Below are positions 48,954 through 64,000 of a stretch of DNA of 64,000 bases, piece by piece. Positions within the stretch are counted from its first letter, which is position 1. Every line of letters begins with the position of its first letter. The position numbers and the translations under genes were made by a program. This DNA comes from Vulcanimicrobiota bacterium. Lineage in GTDB: Bacteria > Vulcanimicrobiota > Vulcanimicrobiia > Vulcanimicrobiales > Vulcanimicrobiaceae. The notes beneath the pieces were generated by a model. The model had not been told where the DNA came from and did not search any database. It saw only the letters and a list, made by a program, of their open reading frames with translations. The DNA lies in contig CAWCIZ010000005.1 of the NCBI GenBank assembly GCA_963795855.1, positions 29,434-93,433 of the forward strand, in the 5' to 3' direction.

Positions 48954-49962
48954 ATGAACCCTACTTCCGCGTCGACGACCGTACGAACCCGTTTGGAGCG
49001 CTGGCCCTACAAGTATCCGTTCCGCATCACCGGCTATGACTGGACCGAGGCGGAGGTCGTTACGGTCGAAATCGAACGCGGCGGCGTCGTGGGGCGCGGT
49101 GAATGCGCGGGCGTGTATTACAAGGACGATCCGCCGGCGCACTGCCTCTCGGAGATCGAGCGGGTCGCGGATGCGGTGGCTCGCGGTGCCGGCCGCGCCG
49201 ACTTGCTCGAACTTCTCCCGGCGGGCGGCGCGCGTAACGCGCTCGACTGCGCTCTGTGGGAGCTGGAGGCAAAAATCGAACGCCGCCCCGTTTGGGACTT
49301 GGCCGGATTGGCGCAGCCGCATGCCGTTCTAACGACATACACGATCGGCTCCGACGCTGCCGACGTCATGGCGCGCAGGGCGCGCGAGTTTTCCGATGCG
49401 CGCGCGCTCAAGTTGAAGTTGACCGGCACGCCGGCGGATTCCGACTGCGTGAACGCCGTGCGCGAAGCGCGTCCCGACGTCTGGCTGGCGGTCGACGCGA
49501 ATCAAGGTTTTACGCGAGCGTCCCTCGAGGATCTCTTGCCGGTGCTGCAGCAGGCACGCGTCGAACTCGTCGAGCAGCCGTTCCCGAATTGGACGGGAGG
49601 CCGACATGGACGGCTTGGAATCGCCGATCCCCGTTGCAGCCGATGAAAGCGCGCAAACCGCGGACGATTTGCCGAATATCGTGAACCGGGCAAATATCGT
49701 GAACATCAAACTCGATAAATGCGGCGGGCTTACCGCGGCGTTCGCGATGGCCTCGCGAGCCCGCGAGTTGGGCCTCGGCGTAATGGTCGGAAACATGGGC
49801 GGAACGTCGCTCGCCATGGCGCCGGCATTCCTTTTAGGACAGATCTGCGACGTGACGGATCTCGACGGTCCGCTGCTTCTGCGCGACGATCGCCGGCCGG
49901 CCGTGCAGTATTCCGACGGCCGCATCTGGTGCGGACCGGAGGTTTGGGGTTATGGAGGCTAA
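48954..49962 (+). CDS. Dipeptide epimerase / N-acyl-D-amino-acid racemase (enolase superfamily; frameshift ~49588)
   Basis: GARNALDCALW, KLKL, DANQG, EQP, ADES, NIKLDKCGG, DLDGP. Confidence 0.88.
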
Positions 49963-51092
49963 CGGTTTGCGATCGCTTCTACTTACGGCAACGTTCTTTT
50001 TCGCGGCTTGCATCGCTGCGGCCGCGGCTCCGCTCAGTCCCGCGCAAGTTCGGCAGATCGACGCAATCGCAACGAAAGCGCTTGCCGCGCAGCACCTTTC
50101 CGGCATCGAAGTCGGCGTGGGGCGCAACGGCACCGTCCTCTACGCTCGCGGATACGGGCTGCGCGATCGCGCGCGTTCGCTGCCCGTCACCGCGCAAACG
50201 GTTTTTCCGGTCGGGTCGATAACCAAGCAGTTCACCGCAACCGCAGTCATGCTGCTCGTTCAGCGCGGAAAGATCGATCTCGACTCCCATGTTTCGCGGT
50301 ATCTTCCAAAGGCGCCTCACGGCGGCGGATATTACGGTTCGCGAACTGCTCGATCAGACGAGCGGATTGCCCGACTATCTCGAAAACAAGCCGCTGCTTG
50401 CCGCCATCATGTCCGGAACGGACGGTCCGCACGGCGTCCAAAGTTTGGTGGCGCTGGTGAACGGCAAACCGCTGCATTTCAAACCCGGCACGAAGTACGA
50501 GTACAGCAACACCAACTACGCACTCGCGGGTTTGCTCGTCGCGCGTGCGAGCGGTGTGCCGTATCCAACGTTTCTCCAGCGCGAGATCTTCAGGCCTCAA
50601 GGTTTGAATTCGACGTACTACCTCTCGATGTCCGTGCCGCCGGGCCCGAATGCCGCGCGCGGATACAACTACGCAAAAGGCCGCTTCACGGTGATTCCGC
50701 GCTTCTCGATGGATTGGGGAAACGCGGCCGGCGCCATTGCGTCCGACGCGCACGATTTGATCCGTTGGGATCGGGCGTATTTCAGCGGCGCGATCATTCC
50801 ACTCGCAGCCGTGCGCATCGCGACCACGCCGCCGGCTCACGTCACGATGCTCAAGTCGAAGGATCGAATGAACGATCTGGGCATCGGCTACGCATTCGGC
50901 TGGGTGCAAGCGCGAGCCGAAGGCCGGCAACTGATCTGGCATAACGGCGGATTGCCCGGCGCGCGAGCGATGAATGCGGTATTCCCGGCCGACGGCCTTG
51001 AAGTGATCGTTCTTACCAACGCGACCGACGCCGCCCCCGAGGAAACGGCCCTCAAAATTGCGCGCGTGATTTACGACGGCTCGACGCGTTGA
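49952..51092 (+). CDS. Secreted serine hydrolase (beta-lactamase family; frameshift ~50328)
   Basis: Signal peptide, SITK, YSN, HNG. Confidence 0.85.
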
Positions 51093-55037: not shown

Positions 55038-56726
55038 ATGATTGCCGCACTGCTGCGAGTCGCCGGTCTAGGGTGCATCGTTTCGCTGCTGAGCCCGGCG
55101 CTTGCGAGCGCAGCATCGCACGCGCTTGATGCGCCGCAGCGCAAGCGCGTCGACGCCGTCTTCGCACAATACGACGCCCCGAACGTGCCGGGGTGCGCGC
55201 TCGGAGTATTTCGCGACGGAGCCATCGCGTACGCTCGCGGCTACGGCATGGCCGATCTGGAACGAAATGTTCGCATCACACCCGGCTCGGTGTTCGACGT
55301 CGGCTCGGTCAGCAAACAATTTGCGGCCGCTGCCATCGCACTGCTGGTCGAGGACCGAAAGGTTTCGTTCGAAGACGACGTTCGAAAGTACGTTCCCGAA
55401 CTGCCGCGATATGGAGCGCCGATCACGATCGACGAACTGATGTGGCACACGAGCGGGCTTCGTGACTACACGGATTTGCTGGATCTGGCCGGCTACGGGT
55501 TGGAGCAAGCGACGACCGACGCGCAGGCGCTTTCGCTCATCACGCGGCAAAAGCATCTGGAATTTCCCAGCGGCTCGCAGTTCGAATATTCCAATACGAA
55601 TTACTTTTTGCTTTCGGTCATCGTCAAGCGGGTCACCGGGCAAACGTTGGCGCAATTCGCGCGGCGCCGCATCTTCGCTCCGCTCGGGATGACTCACACG
55701 CTGTACCGGACCGATTACGCGATGCTGATTCCGAATCGAGCGATGGGCTACGCTCCCTCCGGCGGCGGCCGCTTCAAAAACAGCATGTCGAACTGGGAGC
55801 AGACCGGCGACGGCGCGGTACAGATTTCGATAGACGACGCGGCCAAGTGGGATGAAAACTTCTACACGGGCCGCGTGGGAGGCCAAGCGATGCTTCGTGA
55901 TTTGCAAACGCCGGGTCACCTGACGAACCGAACGAAACTCGACTACGCGCGCGGGCTGTTCGTCGGATCGTATCGCGGCCTGCGTCTCATCTCACATGGC
56001 GGCGCCTGGATCGGCTACCGCGCCGAATTCGATCGCTATCCAACGGTCCACACCTCGGTCGTCGTGTTGTGCAACTCGGACGCGGCTACTCCCGCATCGC
56101 TGGCGCAGCACGTCGCCGACATCGTGCTGCAGCGGTCCTTGGCTCGCGTGCCCATTGCTGCCGTAGCGCGCCCGTCTGCGCAAGCGCCGCTCCCTGTGCG
56201 CGATTTCGCCGGCGCATATTTTGACGAAACAGGCGGCGATGTGTTTCACGTGACGCCGAGCGCGCACGGTATCGCACTGGACAACGGAGGCGCGAGCTAC
56301 CCGCTTACGCCGGCCGGCAGAGCGTCGTTCCGGCTCGGCGGCACGGCGATCGATTTTACGCTCGGAAAAAACGGGTCCGCGACGTCGATGCGCATCGGCT
56401 CGGGAGCCGAGCGCGTTTACGCGCAAAAATTCGTGCCGGCCTCGCCGACTGCCGCCGAGTTGGCGGGCGCGTCCGCCAACTACTATAGTCCCGAACTCGA
56501 CGTCACGTGGACGCTGCGCGCGGTCGGGCGCACCCTTCGACTGGAACCGAGCCGCTATTTAACCCGCGACGCCGCGGGCGTGCTGCATCCGCAACTTCGC
56601 GATACCTTCACTTCGGACGGCGGCTTCTTGATACGCCTTACGCGCGATGCAGCCGGCGCTATCGACGGGTTCACGCTGAGTTCCGGCCGGGGACTTCGTT
56701 CGCTCCTCTTCACGCGCGCACAATGA
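55038..56726 (+). CDS. Secreted serine hydrolase (MlrB-like)
   Basis: Signal peptide, SVSK, HTSGLRD, YSN, HGG; C-terminal beta domains. Confidence 0.85.
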   Translation: MIAALLRVAGLGCIVSLLSPALASAASHALDAPQRKRVDAVFAQYDAPNVPGCALGVFRDGAIAYARGYGMADLERNVRITPGSVFDVGSVSKQFAAAAIALLVEDRKVSFEDDVRKYVPELPRYGAPITIDELMWHTSGLRDYTDLLDLAGYGLEQATTDAQALSLITRQKHLEFPSGSQFEYSNTNYFLLSVIVKRVTGQTLAQFARRRIFAPLGMTHTLYRTDYAMLIPNRAMGYAPSGGGRFKNSMSNWEQTGDGAVQISIDDAAKWDENFYTGRVGGQAMLRDLQTPGHLTNRTKLDYARGLFVGSYRGLRLISHGGAWIGYRAEFDRYPTVHTSVVVLCNSDAATPASLAQHVADIVLQRSLARVPIAAVARPSAQAPLPVRDFAGAYFDETGGDVFHVTPSAHGIALDNGGASYPLTPAGRASFRLGGTAIDFTLGKNGSATSMRIGSGAERVYAQKFVPASPTAAELAGASANYYSPELDVTWTLRAVGRTLRLEPSRYLTRDAAGVLHPQLRDTFTSDGGFLIRLTRDAAGAIDGFTLSSGRGLRSLLFTRAQ

Positions 56727-56830
56727 GCGCTCGCGACGAAATATCGACCGTTCCTCTAAAATTTTGGGCTGCCGAGAGGAACGGCCCTACTCGGCGTGAA
56801 GGACTCACGCAAGTTAGGAGATTGCTGCCA

Positions 56831-59800
56831 ATGAACGCTCGTTTTGGTGGTCCCCTTCGGACGGCCGTACTCGCCGGCCTCGGGCTCTTGTTCTCGATCG
56901 CCGTCACCGCGCCGCCGGCGGTATATGCGGCGGATGCCAGTACGGTTTCCGGTACGGTCGTGACGACCGACGGCGCTCCGGTCGCCGCCGCCACCGTGAC
57001 GCTCAGCGGACCCGCGCGCGAACAAACGGCAACCGACGCAAAGGGGACGTTCCACTTCGGAAATGTAACGCCCGGCGTCTACTCCGTCACCGTAACGAAG
57101 GCGGGGTTTGACGCGTATCGCACGGATGACGTCGCAGCGCTCGCCGGAAATACCGAAGTCGTGAATGTGACGCTCGCGCAGCTGACGTTTTCATCGCTGC
57201 GAACGATCGCGAGCGTTTCGACGCGCGCGCCCGGAGTGGCGCCGATCAATAAATCCACTGCATCGATCAGCTCGATTTCGGGACAAGTCTTTGCCGATCA
57301 AGGACAGCAGCAGGTCATCAAAGTGCTCAACGAAACGCCGGGAATCATCACCTCGCCCTACAACCCGGGAAACGGAAATCCGAGCAACGGCGCTTCGCCT
57401 GCTTCAGCTCAAACTCCGCAAATACGCGGTGCGTTGCCTTACGAAACGGAATCGCTCATCGACGGACATCCCGTTTCCGTCGGCTCCGCCGGTTCGTATT
57501 CGCCCAATCTCCTCAACCCGTGGCTGCTCCAGGACGTCGAACTGGTCAAAGGACCGGGTTCGATGCCGGAGGAGATCAACTATGCGATCAACGGCACGGT
57601 GAACTATCGAACGCTGCAACCGACCCCGCAGAATAAAGACGCCGTAATGCTCGGATACGATAACTGGGGCGGCGTCTCGACGGGGTTCAAAGCAACGGGT
57701 TCGACGGCGAACCACAAATTCGGCTATGCCGTGGGTTACGTCACCGACGGCGCACCGGGACCGCTCAAGAACTTCACGTATGACGCTACGCAGCTTCCGC
57801 TCGACAGCGGGCCGCCCGGCGGCCCCTATTACATCAACGGACAGCAGGTGGCCATGGTCGGTGGGCCCGTCGGTTTAGCGCCTGCACCGCCGCAGTTCGC
57901 TCCGTACGCCGGCATGGGATTGAACTTTGCGGATCCGGTCGTCGGATGCTGCTTCAAGAGCGACACCGGGTATCACGCGACGTCCGAACTTGCGAAAGCC
58001 GTCGTAAATTTCACCAACAACACGTCGCTGACTCTCTCCTATCTCGGCGGGCAGAGCGTCAATGGAAACGGAGATCCGAATTTCTATTCGGCGGCACTGG
58101 TCGGGAACACCGGGCTGCCTGCGGCGTTCTTTGCACCGTGCGGCACCGCGAGCGCGCCGCTCACTTGCAGTCCGTATGCAACGACTACCACTTATAACTG
58201 CGCCGGCGGAGGCGGTGCTCCGGCGTGCAATACGGCGGTGCCCTTCGACATTACGTCCGTTAACGGCGCGGGCTATACGTGGACGCAGCAGAACCTGTTC
58301 CAAGGCGAGTTTCGCACGACGCTCGGAAGCACGGGAACCGTGCTCGCGCGCTACTACACCGGGTCGCTGAATCAGTACGCCCTGCTGGGATCGTCGGGTT
58401 CCCAGTTGACGTACTCGATGAACACCTGGGGTACGATCCCGCTCTGTCCGACCGGCACGACGTTGGATAAGACGACGTTCATGTGCGATAGCTCGGGCGG
58501 CCCCGTCGCGCCAGTGAACACGACGTTTACGGGCCAGCAAGCCACGTTCACGACTGCGAATTTCCCGAACACATTTACGACGAACGACGCGATGAACGGC
58601 GAGACGCTGGAAGTGCAGGAACTCCTTGGCGAAAATACGTTGACGCTCGCGTACGACCACTCCGAGCAGGCATCCGCGTCGACGGCCGACGAGCCATCAG
58701 TCGGCATTATCGTGAACAGTCCGGTCAAAGGATCCAAGCAGACATTCCAAACGTTCTCGCTACGCGACAACGTCATGCTCACCCCGAAGGTCGAGTTGAA
58801 CGTCGGCGACTACCTCATCAACTATCTCAGCCACTATTCCATCGACGGCGGCAAAACGTGGAACGACGCCTCGCACGCGTACAACGAGCCGCGCGCGGCG
58901 GTCAACTGGCATCCCAACAATGACACGGCGTTTCGCTTCTCGACCGGCGGATCGGTAGCGCCGCCGTACATCAGTCTCGTCTCCTCGGGCGGTACGCAGT
59001 GGAGCGCAGTGATCGGCGGCGTACCGGCGGCCGGGTGGCTACAAAATGCAAATAACGGCGCGATCAATGCCGAGACCGCCTGGGGCTACGACCTCGGTTT
59101 CGATCACCGTCTCGAGCAGTCGACGTCGATCTCGCTCGACCTCTACCTGACGCAATTGCAGAATCTGTTTCTGGACCAGACGCAGCTCGGTGATTCCGGC
59201 GACGTTCGGTCCGGCTCCCGACAATTGCCCAAACCTGCCGTGCTTGGTCTCGAAAACCGCGAACCTCGGCCACGCGCGTTATGAAGGCGTCGAGATTGCG
59301 CTGAATCACACGCCGCTATTCGGCCTGGGCTGGAGAGTGCAGGGCTCGCTGCAGCGCGCCTACACGTACGATCTGCCGCCGTATTTCTACTGCGCCGGTT
59401 CGGTCGATCCGGTCAGCGGTAAACCGATTCCCCCGGGACCCGGCTGCCTCTACAACACGAACCTCGCCGTACTTCCCAACGTAAATTTTGGCGGCCAGCC
59501 CACCGCACTTGCGGGAGGTCCGAACGGCATCGGCAGTGCGCGAGTGCCGTATGCGCTCGGTTACGGCGAACTCAACTGGACCGGACACGCAGGCCAATAT
59601 TACAACCTCGGATTAACGTACTTCGGCGAGAACAACAGCTTCAACGTGCCGCCGTTCGCAGTGGTGTCGGCCAACGCTCGCTGGAACATCGGTCACGGCA
59701 CGAGCCTGCAACTGTCGGGCGATAACCTTACCAACGCATACGCGAATCCGTACGTCGGTTTCTTCAACGGCAGTCCGCTGCCGCTCGTCAACGGCGCGAT

Positions 59801-59942
59801 GCAGACCAATCCGTTGACCGGGACGTATCAACCGGCCTATGCGGCCGCTACGCCGCTCGGCAACTACGGTCCGGCCAGCTTCCGTATCCAATTTATCAAG
59901 GAGTTCGGAAGCGGAAGCAACGACGTGCAACAGCAGCATTGA
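56831..59942 (+). CDS. TonB-dependent receptor (frameshift ~59189)
   Basis: Paralog of 602..3448 (LTFSSLRTIASV, SNGASP, YET.SLIDGHP.SVG, VKGPG). Confidence 0.85.
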
Positions 59943-61552
59943 CCAGCGTTCGTGCGCGGCTCGACCGCGTATTCGCTGAACTCGAAGGCCGGCAGGGCCC
60001 GGGGGTAGTCGTCGGCATCGCTCAGCGCGGCATGCCGGATTACCGCCGGGCCTTCGGCCTATCGAGCGTCGAGCAGGACTGCCGGAACCGCGAGAATACG
60101 CGTATGCGCATCGGTTCGTCGACCAAGCAGTTCACGTGCTTCGGCGTTCTGCTGCTTGCCGAGGACGGATTGCTTTCGATCGACGACAACGTGCGAACGC
60201 ACCTGCCCGAGTTGCCCGAATATGGCGCCTCGATCACGCTGCGGCATCTCATGTCGAACACGAGCGGCTTGCGTTGTTACCTGGATCTCATCGGCATCTT
60301 AGCAAGCATGGACCGCGCCGTTCCGGCGCCGCTTCCGCTGCATCTGCAAATGAAGCAGCAGACCGTAAATTTCACCGCCGGCGAACGGCTCGTTTACTGC
60401 AACGGCGGCTATTTGCTGCTTTCGGCGATCATCGAGCGCTTGTCGAGCATGACCCTCGCCGGATTTTTTTCGAAACGAATCTTTGACCCGCTCGGCATGC
60501 CGCATACGACGTTCGAGCCGTCCGATACGAAGCTGCTCGAGAACGTTGCGACGCTGCATCAGCGCTATCCCGACGGATCGTATCATCGCGGAACGATCGG
60601 CGTTCCGCTCACCGGTGACGGCGCAATTCTTTCCACGGTCGAGGACATGCTCCGCTGGCTGACCCATATGGACTCGCCGATTATCGGCAGCGCACAAACC
60701 TGGAAAACGATGCTTTCGGCAGGCTCCGATACGGAGCACGGATACGGTTTCGGCCTCATGCACGAACGCTACCGTGGAATAGATACGATTCATCACGGCG
60801 GAACGGTTTTCGGCGGCCGGTGTCAAGCGCTCAAGGTGCCCGAGCACGGCATCAACATCGTCATGATGAGCAACGCATCCGACATTTTTCCAGGCGATTT
60901 CACCTCGAAAGCACTTGACGTGCTGCTCGAAGATCGGATGAGCGCGCCGCTTAGCGCTGCGACCGCCGAAAACGCGCAGCGCTTCGCGGGAACGTACTAC
61001 GGCGCAAAAAGCGGCGAAGTCGTTCACGTACTCGTCAAAGACCAGCGCGCGTTCGTCGACGGCGAGTCCGGCGAAGCGCCGCTCTACGATACACCCGGCG
61101 GCGGTCTTCGCACGAATGCCGCTTCGCTCGGAATCGAGATTCGCGATGCCGGGGACGGCGCGGCCGCGCACGCTACCGCAATCGAACTGCTCGCCGGCGG
61201 GTACCGCTCGACGCTGCAGCGCTTGGAACCGCGGCCCGATGACGCGGATCTCGACGCCTGGTGCGGCAGCTATGAAAACGCGGATTGCGAGGCGACGGCC
61301 ATTATTTCACACGAGCCCACTCCCAGCATGAGTATTTCCTCGCCGTACGGCGCCGCGCGCTACACGCTGGAACACGTCGGCGGCGACGTATGGTATGCGC
61401 GTTTGGACAATTCGTGGTTCCCGCTCAAGATCGTCATCGAGTTTGCTAAGGACGCATCGGGCGGCGGAACGCTCTCGATCACGAGTGGACGTACGAAACG
61501 ATTGGCTTTTCACGCCGCCCGCGTATCCAGCCGTTCCAAACTGCGATACTGA
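59939..61552 (+). CDS. Cytoplasmic D-aminopeptidase-like serine hydrolase
   Basis: SSTK, YCN variant of YxN, HGG; no signal peptide. Confidence 0.8.
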   Translation: MTSVRARLDRVFAELEGRQGPGVVVGIAQRGMPDYRRAFGLSSVEQDCRNRENTRMRIGSSTKQFTCFGVLLLAEDGLLSIDDNVRTHLPELPEYGASITLRHLMSNTSGLRCYLDLIGILASMDRAVPAPLPLHLQMKQQTVNFTAGERLVYCNGGYLLLSAIIERLSSMTLAGFFSKRIFDPLGMPHTTFEPSDTKLLENVATLHQRYPDGSYHRGTIGVPLTGDGAILSTVEDMLRWLTHMDSPIIGSAQTWKTMLSAGSDTEHGYGFGLMHERYRGIDTIHHGGTVFGGRCQALKVPEHGINIVMMSNASDIFPGDFTSKALDVLLEDRMSAPLSAATAENAQRFAGTYYGAKSGEVVHVLVKDQRAFVDGESGEAPLYDTPGGGLRTNAASLGIEIRDAGDGAAAHATAIELLAGGYRSTLQRLEPRPDDADLDAWCGSYENADCEATAIISHEPTPSMSISSPYGAARYTLEHVGGDVWYARLDNSWFPLKIVIEFAKDASGGGTLSITSGRTKRLAFHAARVSSRSKLRY

Positions 61553-62190
61553 ATCGCTTCCGCAACGTGAGTGGGCGCGATTGCCTCACTATTTGCGAGA
61601 TCTGCAATCGTGCGCGCTGCACGGGCGATGCGATCGAGTGCGCGGGCCGAAAACTGCCGTCGCGCGCTTGCGTGCGCCAGCAACTCCATCGCTTTCGTGT
61701 CAAGACCGCAATACGTGCGCATCGCGCTGCTCGGGATTTCGGCATTACACGCAATGGGCGTGCCGGCGAATCGTTCGCGCTGGCGTTGCCGTGCGGCGAT
61801 AACGCGTTCGCGAATCGAGGAGGATCGTTCCGCTCGTTCGGCGCGTACCATGTCGTCGAAGGGCACGCGTGCGATCTCGATCTGCAAGTCGATGCGATCG
61901 AGCAGCGGCCCGGAAAGCTTCGCGACGTATTTTGCGACGGCAGCGTCGTCGCATCGGCAGTCCGTGCTGCGCGTGCCGCGGTAGCCGCACGGGCACGGAT
62001 TCATCGAGGCCACGAGCATGAAGCGTGCGGGATACGTAAACGTTCCTGCGGCGCGCGCGATCGTCACGGCGCCTTCCTCGAGCGGCTGGCGCATCACCTC
62101 GATCGCGGAGCGCGTGAACTCCGGCAGTTCGTCTAAAAACAACACACCATGATGAGCGAGGCTTATCTCGCCGGGTTTGACGAAAGTTCC
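61510..62190 (-). pseudogene. comM: 3' half of ComM/YifB Mg-chelatase-like ATPase, interrupted by an insertion
   Basis: PGEISLAHHGVLFLDE, NPCPCG, SGPLLDRID, ARTIADL present; Walker A and N-terminal half absent. Confidence 0.88.
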
Positions 62191-62662
62191 GCTGTTGCTT
62201 ACAACTGCCGATGAGAAAACTGCGGCTCGCAGTATCGGCACTTTACAACTAGGCGTGAGAAATCCACACAACTTACACTGAGAAAAAAATCGTCCTTGAT
62301 CGGCGCCGTAGGAGCGCACTCACGCGTTTTCGTCGGACGCCGTTATTCAGCGGCGGTTATCCCCTCGTCAAGACCTGATGCCTTAGACAGCATCGGGATG
62401 ATGCATCGCCTTTCACCAGAGGTTCACGGCTTGCGCCACTTGTCGCGACCACCCACGGATGTGTCGCGTACGCGCTCAACATGGATAGCAGCGCCAAGGA
62501 TGCATTTCGCGCGCTCTCTCGATCGCTGCAGATTGAGTAGGCTCTACCGCGCTAGCGCGCCGCGCGCCGCCCTTGCGGACCTCGTATTCGCCGTCCGGAC
62601 GGCGCTCGATATATATATCTGCTTGTTTTTCACCCTTGATCTCCTAGGCGCCAGATGCCGCC

Positions 62663-62700
62663 AAACAGGTGTTCTACCCTGGGAATCGAACACCTGTTCC
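62663..62700. promoter_or_regulatory. Two LexA/SOS-type boxes (AAAC-AGGT-GTTC; CGAAC-ACCT-GTTCC) forming an inverted repeat
   Basis: Match to the GAAC-N4-GTTC LexA consensus. Confidence 0.55.
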
Positions 62701-62761
62701 CATGCGCGACCCGACGGCTGCGCTAGAGCCGAACCGAATTCTGATTCAAAGGACCGTCATC

Positions 62762-62926
62762 ATGGCCCAAACTTACAAGCCCGGGGAAACCGTTCCGAAG
62801 ACCGGAACGGTCGAATGCACGCAGTTCAACGGCACGCGCGATAGCGTGAAAGAAGGCACGAAATTCGCGCCTTGCGACCACTGGCGAGATCATCACGGCA
62901 AAGACTGCACCTGGCAGTACGTGTGA
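62762..62926 (+). CDS. YjzC-like small protein (54 aa)
   Basis: YKPGE.VP.TG..EC...G..FAPC...W pattern; SD AAGGA. Confidence 0.7.
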   Translation: MAQTYKPGETVPKTGTVECTQFNGTRDSVKEGTKFAPCDHWRDHHGKDCTWQYV

Positions 62927-62932
62927 TAGGTA

Positions 62933-62954
62933 AGGGGACCAACATCGGTCCCCT
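62933..62954 (+). terminator. Hairpin after the YjzC-like gene
   Basis: AGGGGACC-AACATC-GGTCCCCT followed by CTTCATTTT. Confidence 0.55.
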
Positions 62955-63170: not shown

Positions 63171-63422
63171 ATGGAAGACAAAGACAAAACGGTCACTATA
63201 ATCGTAAATGGCATTTCACACCCATGGTCGGAAAAGAAGATAACCTACGCGCAGGTCGTCACTCTTGATGTGCCGGACTATCCGCAGCACCCCGAAATCA
63301 CGTACTCAGTGAAGTACTCGTTTGAAAACGGCCATGGACCAGAGCGCGTTCTTGCGACCGGCGCATCTGTGGAAGTCAAGGACCGTATGATTTTCACCGT
63401 TGCTGAAACGGGCCAATCCTAG
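63171..63422 (+). CDS. Ubiquitin-like (multi-ubiquitin domain) protein
   Basis: VTIIVNG...ITYAQVV.L...YSVKY...L..G.SV.VKD.MIF.V..TGQS beta-grasp pattern; SD GGAG. Confidence 0.8.
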   Translation: MEDKDKTVTIIVNGISHPWSEKKITYAQVVTLDVPDYPQHPEITYSVKYSFENGHGPERVLATGASVEVKDRMIFTVAETGQS

Positions 63423-64000
63423 TTGCTCAACAAGCTCGTATCGGCAAACGACGACGTACGCCGGTTAGTCGCGAAGGGCTACGCCGTCGCTTTTGACAGC
63501 AACTATCTAATTATCCGCGATGTGCCGTATCTCGACAGCGCTAAGGCTCTCCAAATCGGGGTACTCGTTTCAAACATCGTATTTGTGGATCACATCCACA
63601 TTAAGCAAAAAGATCATCAGATATTGTTTGCCGGTTCTGTCCCGTACAATATTGATGGAAATCCCATCCCAAATCTCGCTGGCGGTCCAACTACACTCGC
63701 GCTAAGTTCAAACAGCGCCGACGTAGTAGTGCAGCGCTCATTTTCGAATAAGCCGCGCAGCGGCGCATTTCAAGATTTTTTCGAAAAGATCGAGAACTAT
63801 GTCGCGATCATCTCTGGCCCAGCGATGGGCTGGTACGATGTCAACCCCTATACGTTTCGGAGCGTATTGGAAGAGGGACAAAATAGCGTATTCAAGTTCA
63901 ATGACACACTGACAAGCCTGGCAGAGATCACTGATCTCTCCGCCAAGTTTGCCGACGATGTCGTCGCCGTCATAGGTCTCGGCGGCACCGGTTCGTATGT
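63423..64000 (+). CDS. E1/ThiF-family adenylyltransferase with DUF6791-like N-terminal domain (3' truncated; not in ORF track)
   Basis: Frame open from TTG 63423 to the window end: LVSANDDVRRLVAKGY...RDVPY...DHQ..F.G...FSNKP...VAVIGLGGTGSY (ThiF nucleotide-binding motif). Confidence 0.8.
   Translation, partial: MLNKLVSANDDVRRLVAKGYAVAFDSNYLIIRDVPYLDSAKALQIGVLVSNIVFVDHIHIKQKDHQILFAGSVPYNIDGNPIPNLAGGPTTLALSSNSADVVVQRSFSNKPRSGAFQDFFEKIENYVAIISGPAMGWYDVNPYTFRSVLEEGQNSVFKFNDTLTSLAEITDLSAKFADDVVAVIGLGGTGSY

Follow-up and report, generated by a model that had tools for sequence, protein, structure and literature searches.

What kind of operon lies at the end of the analysed stretch of DNA, a window of 64,000 nucleotides from a Vulcanimicrobiota genome, and how could it attach a ubiquitin-like protein (Ubl) to its targets with an E2-like domain that is free of cysteine? 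An earlier note made from the sequence of the window had read the genes at 63171–64000 as a bacterial Ubl/E2/E1 conjugation operon on a comM-integrated island, and had taken it for a less-characterised variant with an antiviral function by analogy to Bil. Following these genes across the end of the window, which is also the end of contig C5, we find that together with the remainder on contig C4 they likely represent a complete Type II Bub operon (bubA, bubBD, bubE) that is split by the contig break and would tag its targets via Tyr and Ser esters.

Results and Discussion

Identity of the operon

The first gene, bubA, encodes a protein of 83 aa with the C-terminus ETGQS that matches Multi_ubiq (PF14452, E 7e-16, Pfam). 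E. coli BubA (9CD2) is its best match by fold as well as by sequence: it is the top fold match of the BubA model (pLDDT 83; E 2e-5, TM 0.77), bearing out the suspected beta-grasp, and a profile of the BubA clade aligns to it with E 1.8e-17, ungapped through its terminal Ser222. No stand-alone E2 gene separates bubA from the following frame, which is opened by an in-frame TTG and runs with 192 Cys-free codons past the window end (last residues GLGGTGSY). Its N-terminal part matches DUF6791 (PF20590, E 3e-42, Pfam), in line with the Cys-less E2-like domain proposed in the earlier note. The head of C4 extends this frame to a BubBD product of 391 aa, a fusion of a DUF6791 E2 with a ThiF-type E1, and also carries bubE, which codes for a DUF6527 protein of 133 aa (PF20137, E 4e-22), the neighbour that had been expected downstream. 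Across the last kilobase of the window the G+C content falls from ~60–65% to 51%. All coordinates are given in Table 1.

Table 1: Features of the bub locus; positions are those of the window unless contig C4 is named.
Feature	Position	Strand	Remarks
comM/yifB, 3' half	61510..62192	-	Mg_chelatase and TIGR00368 matches
Tn7-like element end	62193..62285	+	TGT terminus; three 18-bp repeats ending TGAGAAA (62201, 62245, 62268)
Two SOS-box-like sites	62661-62676, 62686-62701	.	13.2 and 13.0 bits
54-aa ORF, three Cys	62762..62926	+	no Pfam, PADLOC or NCBIfam match
Terminator-like hairpin	62933-62954		3' of the 54-aa ORF
bubA, single beta-grasp Ubl	63171..63422	+	Ser83 codon 63417-63419; PF14452, model, profile match to 9CD2
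bubBD, residues 1-192	63423..64000	+	DUF6791 E2-like domain and start of ThiF-type E1
bubBD, sites in the window	63615, 63744, 63750, 63918, 63975-63992		His65, Ser108, Lys110, Leu166, GLGGTG motif
Contig end	63998..64000	+	3 nt identical to C4:1-3
bubBD, residues 193-391	C4:2-601		outside the window; Arg220 and Tyr341 included
bubE	C4:605-1006		outside the window; Cys34/36/38/73, Ser65, His76; amphipathic-looking C-terminal tail
comM, 5' half	C4:57286-56424		outside the window

Type II Bub operons have been defined by BubA (Ubl), BubBD (E2–E1 fusion) and BubE (DUF6527) (bioRxiv 10.1101/2024.11.21.623953). We assign the operon to Type II because its domain set and gene order fit this definition: given the join of C5 and C4 discussed below, it comprises a Ubl, an E2–E1 fusion and a DUF6527 protein and is devoid of JAB. 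It is therefore no less-characterised variant but an ordinary member of a published family that has been described structurally and biochemically, one more beside 544 catalogued operons. The profile searches suggested in the earlier note succeeded for Multi_ubiq, DUF6791 and DUF6527, while the C4 half scored below the Pfam cut-off for ThiF and JAB gave no match. PADLOC 2.0 matched neither bubA, bubBD and bubE nor the 54-aa ORF upstream of them, which is uninformative because this release is older than the Bub family. Neither the DUF6791 profile nor the E1 half retrieved a significant sequence match from the PDB. For the DUF6791 model (pLDDT 88) the top Foldseek matches were the E2/UEV proteins Atg10, TSG101 (UEV domain) and Atg3, none of them significant (best E 0.03, TM 0.30–0.36), and a diverged UBC fold is assigned only tentatively from these weak matches together with the literature.

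Catalytic residues and proposed mechanism

The E2 domain contains no Cys but Ser108 and His65, both invariant among 129 distinct full-length BubBD homologues (129/129), as well as Lys110 (126/129). Ser108 is the serine of the FSNKP motif that had been suggested as the nucleophile. In the E1 domain we find Arg220 for adenylation (129/129) and Tyr341 in the crossover loop (127/129), and the sole Cys, at position 273, is distant from the Tyr motif. BubE has the set of four Cys for a zinc site and the residues of a Ser–His dyad, with Cys34, Cys38, Cys73, Ser65 and His76 conserved in 121/121 and Cys36 in 120/121 homologues. The clade of the window copy is over-represented among the homologues counted here, and these are phylogenetically related to one another. 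S106, R219, Y342 and K108 of E. coli BubBD fall into the motifs of Ser108, Arg220, Tyr341 and Lys110, as counted by eye in Table S2, and His65 was assigned as the E2 His from its invariance, with no His being numbered in the text of that paper.

E. coli BubBD forms ATP-dependent BubA conjugates that require S106, R219 and Y342 but not K108, Citrobacter BubE is a Ser–His protease that is most active with zinc and strips the conjugates, and ATP-dependent oxyester conjugation has been demonstrated with the proteins of both organisms (bioRxiv 10.1101/2024.11.21.623953). Being homologous to the E. coli system examined in these tests, the operon likely works via Tyr and Ser ester intermediates and not via cysteine thioesters. 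What the analysis shows is which genes are present and how they are arranged, the fold of the Ubl and the catalytic residues; from there we infer the following course. In a dimer of BubBD, the free C-terminus of BubA, namely Ser83 of the probably unprocessed protein, would first be adenylated by the ThiF-type E1 domain. Tyr341 would take over BubA as an oxyester and pass it to Ser108 of the E2 domain, a step in which His65 and perhaps also Lys110 may assist, and BubA would then be moved onto a lysine of the target. BubE, as a predicted zinc-binding Ser65–His76 protease, would remove the BubA tag again.

Peculiarities of this copy

The start of bubBD is unusual, as its TTG follows directly after the TAG of bubA in the same frame, the usual overlap of 26 nt between the two genes (139 of 144 loci) is lost, and no clear Shine–Dalgarno sequence was seen in front of it. 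Moreover, residue 166 is Leu where 119/129 homologues carry an Arg that, going by MoeB/ThiF enzymes, we assume to contact ATP, residue 344 is Thr where 113/129 carry Asn, and BubA departs from the consensus at 6 of 34 well-conserved columns, which is more than in most homologues and in the upper part of the range. These features would be expected from a silent or decaying Type II Bub copy with intact genes, in which BubBD is poorly translated or only weakly active. We nevertheless consider decay unlikely, as bubA, bubBD and bubE are free of stops and frameshifts, all catalytic residues named above are kept, the departure counts of BubBD and BubE lie inside the range of the homologues, and Leu166 and Thr344 recur in 5/129 and 2/129 other homologues, respectively. 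The overlap is also missing at four further loci (L125, L131, L142 and L164), which all end in KVKHTGQS and look like one clade apart from the window copy. Leu166 as a mark of a sequencing error or a pseudogene was rejected as weak on account of the five homologues sharing it.

The serine terminus of BubA

Searches of genomes, metagenomes and viral contigs, taken together with the window itself, provided 154 loci, with viral contigs contributing 3 relatives. An adjacent Ubl–BubBD pair is present in 144 of them (136 distinct junctions); the other ten stand outside this set, those listed being mostly located at contig edges or broken, with L033 ending in Ser. The last residue of BubA is Ser in 144/144 pairs, a count that comes from related loci leaning to the window's own clade and does not represent independent events. 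At position -3 we found G in 115, D in 12, N in 8, S in 5, C in 2, I in 1 and T in 1 of the 144 pairs.

In the 139 overlapping loci the 3' end of bubA also codes for the start of bubBD, so the conservation of Ser could stem from the bubBD frame. We argue against this because all five non-overlapping loci, the window's included, still end in TGQS, and because the first base of the Ser codon is T in 139/139 overlapped loci, although a C there would leave the BubBD residue unchanged (control codons: C 169, T 100). The third base varies (TCA 103, TCG 30, TCT 6), which is silent in bubA and changes the BubBD residue.

The earlier note had assumed a Bil-like antiviral system in which the residues QS need to be trimmed, so that the Ubl is shortened by two residues to Gly81 before conjugation. 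The frequent Gly at position -3, the protease BubE and the processing to Gly that Type I BubA does require are all compatible with such a step, but 29 of the 144 pairs have a different residue there, and the tested E. coli protein likewise lacks this Gly, ending in TDKS. E. coli BubA was furthermore conjugated in an ATP-dependent manner with BubBD alone, no protease being added (bioRxiv 10.1101/2024.11.21.623953), the operon has no JAB gene and PADLOC recognises none of its three genes. Trimming in a Bil-like system thus appears quite improbable, and from the sequence comparison the Ser terminus of BubA is very probably the activated end.

A tag ending in Ser would depart from the rule that ubiquitin-like tags end in Gly, and it tells which remnant to seek by mass spectrometry when hunting for Bub targets. 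The terminus is visible in Table S2 of bioRxiv 10.1101/2024.11.21.623953; the phrase 'C-terminal serine' has no occurrence in either of the two preprints and term searches in them show no discussion of it, although the journal versions (NSMB, Structure) may cover it.

The comM element and the contig join

As proposed in the earlier note, the operon resides on an island integrated into comM, the two halves of which, located on C5 and C4, are contiguous in all six relatives examined. The element end beside the 3' half has its mirror image at C4:56423 (TGT/ACA termini, 18-bp repeats at both ends), a duplicated CCGC flanks the element, and the operon lies ~1 kb inside one end of its ~58 kb. Genes for TnsA, TnsB, TniB and two TniQ proteins are found at C4:4578-10310. 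The targeting of comM by Tn7-like elements is already known (Faure et al., PMC10293859), and as far as the accessible part of that article describes them, Tn6022 and similar elements share TnsA, TnsB, TnsC/TniB and TniQ as well as the insertion immediately 5' of the Walker B region of comM. The present element differs from this type in its tandem pair of TniQ genes, in a tns cluster that lies ~6 kb inside the element end without adjoining it, and in an exact flank duplication of 4 bp and not 5.

The cargo includes RosmerTA (RmrT/RmrA), a TIR protein, AbiEi/AbiEii, a type IIG restriction-modification fragment and a weak Brig1-like match. An IS3-like transposase ORF, identified by eye at C4 18807-19649, interrupts or follows an MmeI-type restriction-modification fragment in the island. 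Directly 3' of bubE there are a DUF2188 gene and a gene with a RelA/SpoT domain (C4 1063-2403); near other Bub loci DUF2188 occurs at 4/45 and the RelA/SpoT gene at 0/45. Elsewhere in the window a beta-lactamase-like and a TonB-receptor-like gene (by eye; 49952-51092 and 56507-59942) are each spread over two frames, which hints at indel errors in the assembly or at genuine frameshifts.

The join of C5 and C4 was made from an overlap of 3 nt and from homology, without reads across the junction. The halves might in principle come from different loci, the window gene then being a truncated fragment: the same 3 nt also form the head of contig C6, and the one small-share DNA sequencing run that is listed, beside which no RNA data are given, covers comM as well as a short segment around 62530-62680 but not the operon. 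The head of C6, however, encodes an unrelated protein, while the NCBIfam profile PRK06153 is matched by positions 1–196 on the window side and 197–393 on the C4 side, abutting exactly at 196/197. DUF6791 and DUF6527 each occur only once in the genome, and both comM halves and both transposon ends likewise pair C5 with C4. We therefore regard an origin from different loci as very improbable and treat the operon as one unit.

DUF6791 matches are present in 11 of 401 genomes of the phylum but in 0/6 of the listed genomes of the same genus, and a class-level search centred on G403 found the centre genome alone (1/400). Among 45 homologous loci the Ubl is present in 45 and BubE in 42. Aligned copies from the same phylum are only 25–37% identical to the window copy, whereas copies from unrelated phyla reach ~70%, and this closer relationship to the unrelated phyla points to a horizontal gain of the operon. 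Cofactor enzymes of the ThiF/MoeB type use a carrier that ends in Gly-Gly and have CxxC zinc motifs. A sulfur-carrier pair of ThiS/ThiF or MoaD/MoeB type, which the ThiF fold with its GxGxxG motif and the beta-grasp partner might suggest, can practically be dismissed in view of a BubA without C-terminal Gly-Gly, the absence of CxxC from both BubBD halves with their sole Cys at 273, a C4 half that scores below the Pfam cut-off for ThiF, the fused DUF6791, the DUF6527 neighbour, the location on a mobile element and the patchy distribution in the phylum.

Upstream region and possible function

Two SOS-box-like sites are located ~480 nt before bubA, with the small ORF and the terminator-like hairpin in between. 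Scored with a matrix derived from 7 sites of the host, they rank 90 and 104 in the genome, and in a comparison made post hoc such a pair within 50 nt was found in 0.065% of 20,000 random 1-kb windows. The host has LexA, and boxes of the type GAAC-N4-GTTC, which we take to be the SOS box of Firmicutes and Actinobacteria, are present upstream of lexA, a radical-SAM gene, an ImuA-like gene, a ribonucleotide reductase and a helicase, the genes being identified by eye (genome G000; C3:796060-796321, C1:220875, C2:317983, C6:100051, C1:570570, C3:1008135). For recA no such box was found within 260 nt upstream. A strong box (~18 bits) just before bubA is present in 2/8 Bub loci of the same phylum (L055 and L056), and 0/44 loci of other groups in the genome collection reach at least 13 bits, so we rejected the idea that SOS boxes generally belong to Bub operons. 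Nor do they go with the 54-aa ORF (0/7 homologue loci examined). This ORF, the start of which presumably resembles a YjzC-like family, is no regular Bub partner (0/45 Bub loci), and its homologues, up to 85% identical, occur in 7/300 other genomes of the phylum in unrelated, often mobile-looking contexts. We hypothesise from these sites that LexA might directly control the operon; if true, this would agree with the known induction of the three dedicated Bub regulators by DNA damage.

Judged from its context alone, the operon is most likely a defence or stress module that is induced by DNA damage or infection, because of the defence cargo on the Tn7-like element and the SOS-box-like sites upstream. 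The antiviral analogy to Bil drawn in the earlier note is not supported, since Bil uses separate Cys-based E1 and E2 enzymes and a JAB protease and no Bub operon has so far been found to protect E. coli from phage (bioRxiv 10.1101/2024.11.21.623953), as restated in 2026 in the accessible part of PMC13373217. An antiphage action of the operon is still an option toward which we lean slightly. A more far-reaching idea, to which we give little credence, is that activation at a C-terminal Ser in place of Gly is a family-wide rule of Type II Bub, kept within the dual-coded 26-nt overlap, and that in the present copy the two genes have become uncoupled, with just an in-frame TAG left between them, and have passed under the control of the host LexA; occasional read-through could then give a BubA–BubBD polyprotein that would have to be cleaved by BubE behind Ser83, similar to the precursor of Type I.

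Comparison with known systems

Bil (Type I/II BilABCD) has in common with the operon a bacterial Ubl with E1 and E2 activities and the defence context, but its separate E1 and E2, its catalytic-Cys domain, its JAB protease and its demonstrated antiphage conjugation have no counterpart here. Type I Bub, as in Citrobacter (BubAB, BubCD, BubE), shares the Tyr/Ser oxyester chemistry and the BubE protease. It typically has a Ubl–E2 fusion that is cut by a JAB domain to the bare Gly and a JAB–E1 fusion, both of which are absent here, as a stop codon ends the Ubl and DUF6791, not JAB, precedes the E1.

The closest described system is the Type II Bub operon of E. coli ZDHYS365, formerly 6E.2 / DUF6527 (Ye, Gong, Chambers, Corbett; bioRxiv 10.1101/2024.11.21.623953, NSMB 2026), which has the same gene set and order with the fused E2–E1, the same Ser/Lys/His site in the E2, the adenylation Arg, the crossover Tyr, the Cys4 and Ser–His residues of DUF6527, a Ubl ending in Ser and a location on a mobile element. 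BubA consists of one beta-grasp domain in our operon and of three in E. coli ZDHYS365, single-domain proteins making up 40% of the Bub Ubls. From the Type II homologues in general the present copy is set apart by the abutting bubA and bubBD genes and by Leu at the position that is usually Arg. No CapW, CapH/P or CapK/S gene was found among the ORFs between the element end and bubA, the SOS-box-like sites being present instead, and the operon has entered comM with a Tn7-like element, whereas that of E. coli ZDHYS365 is inserted at a tRNA gene.
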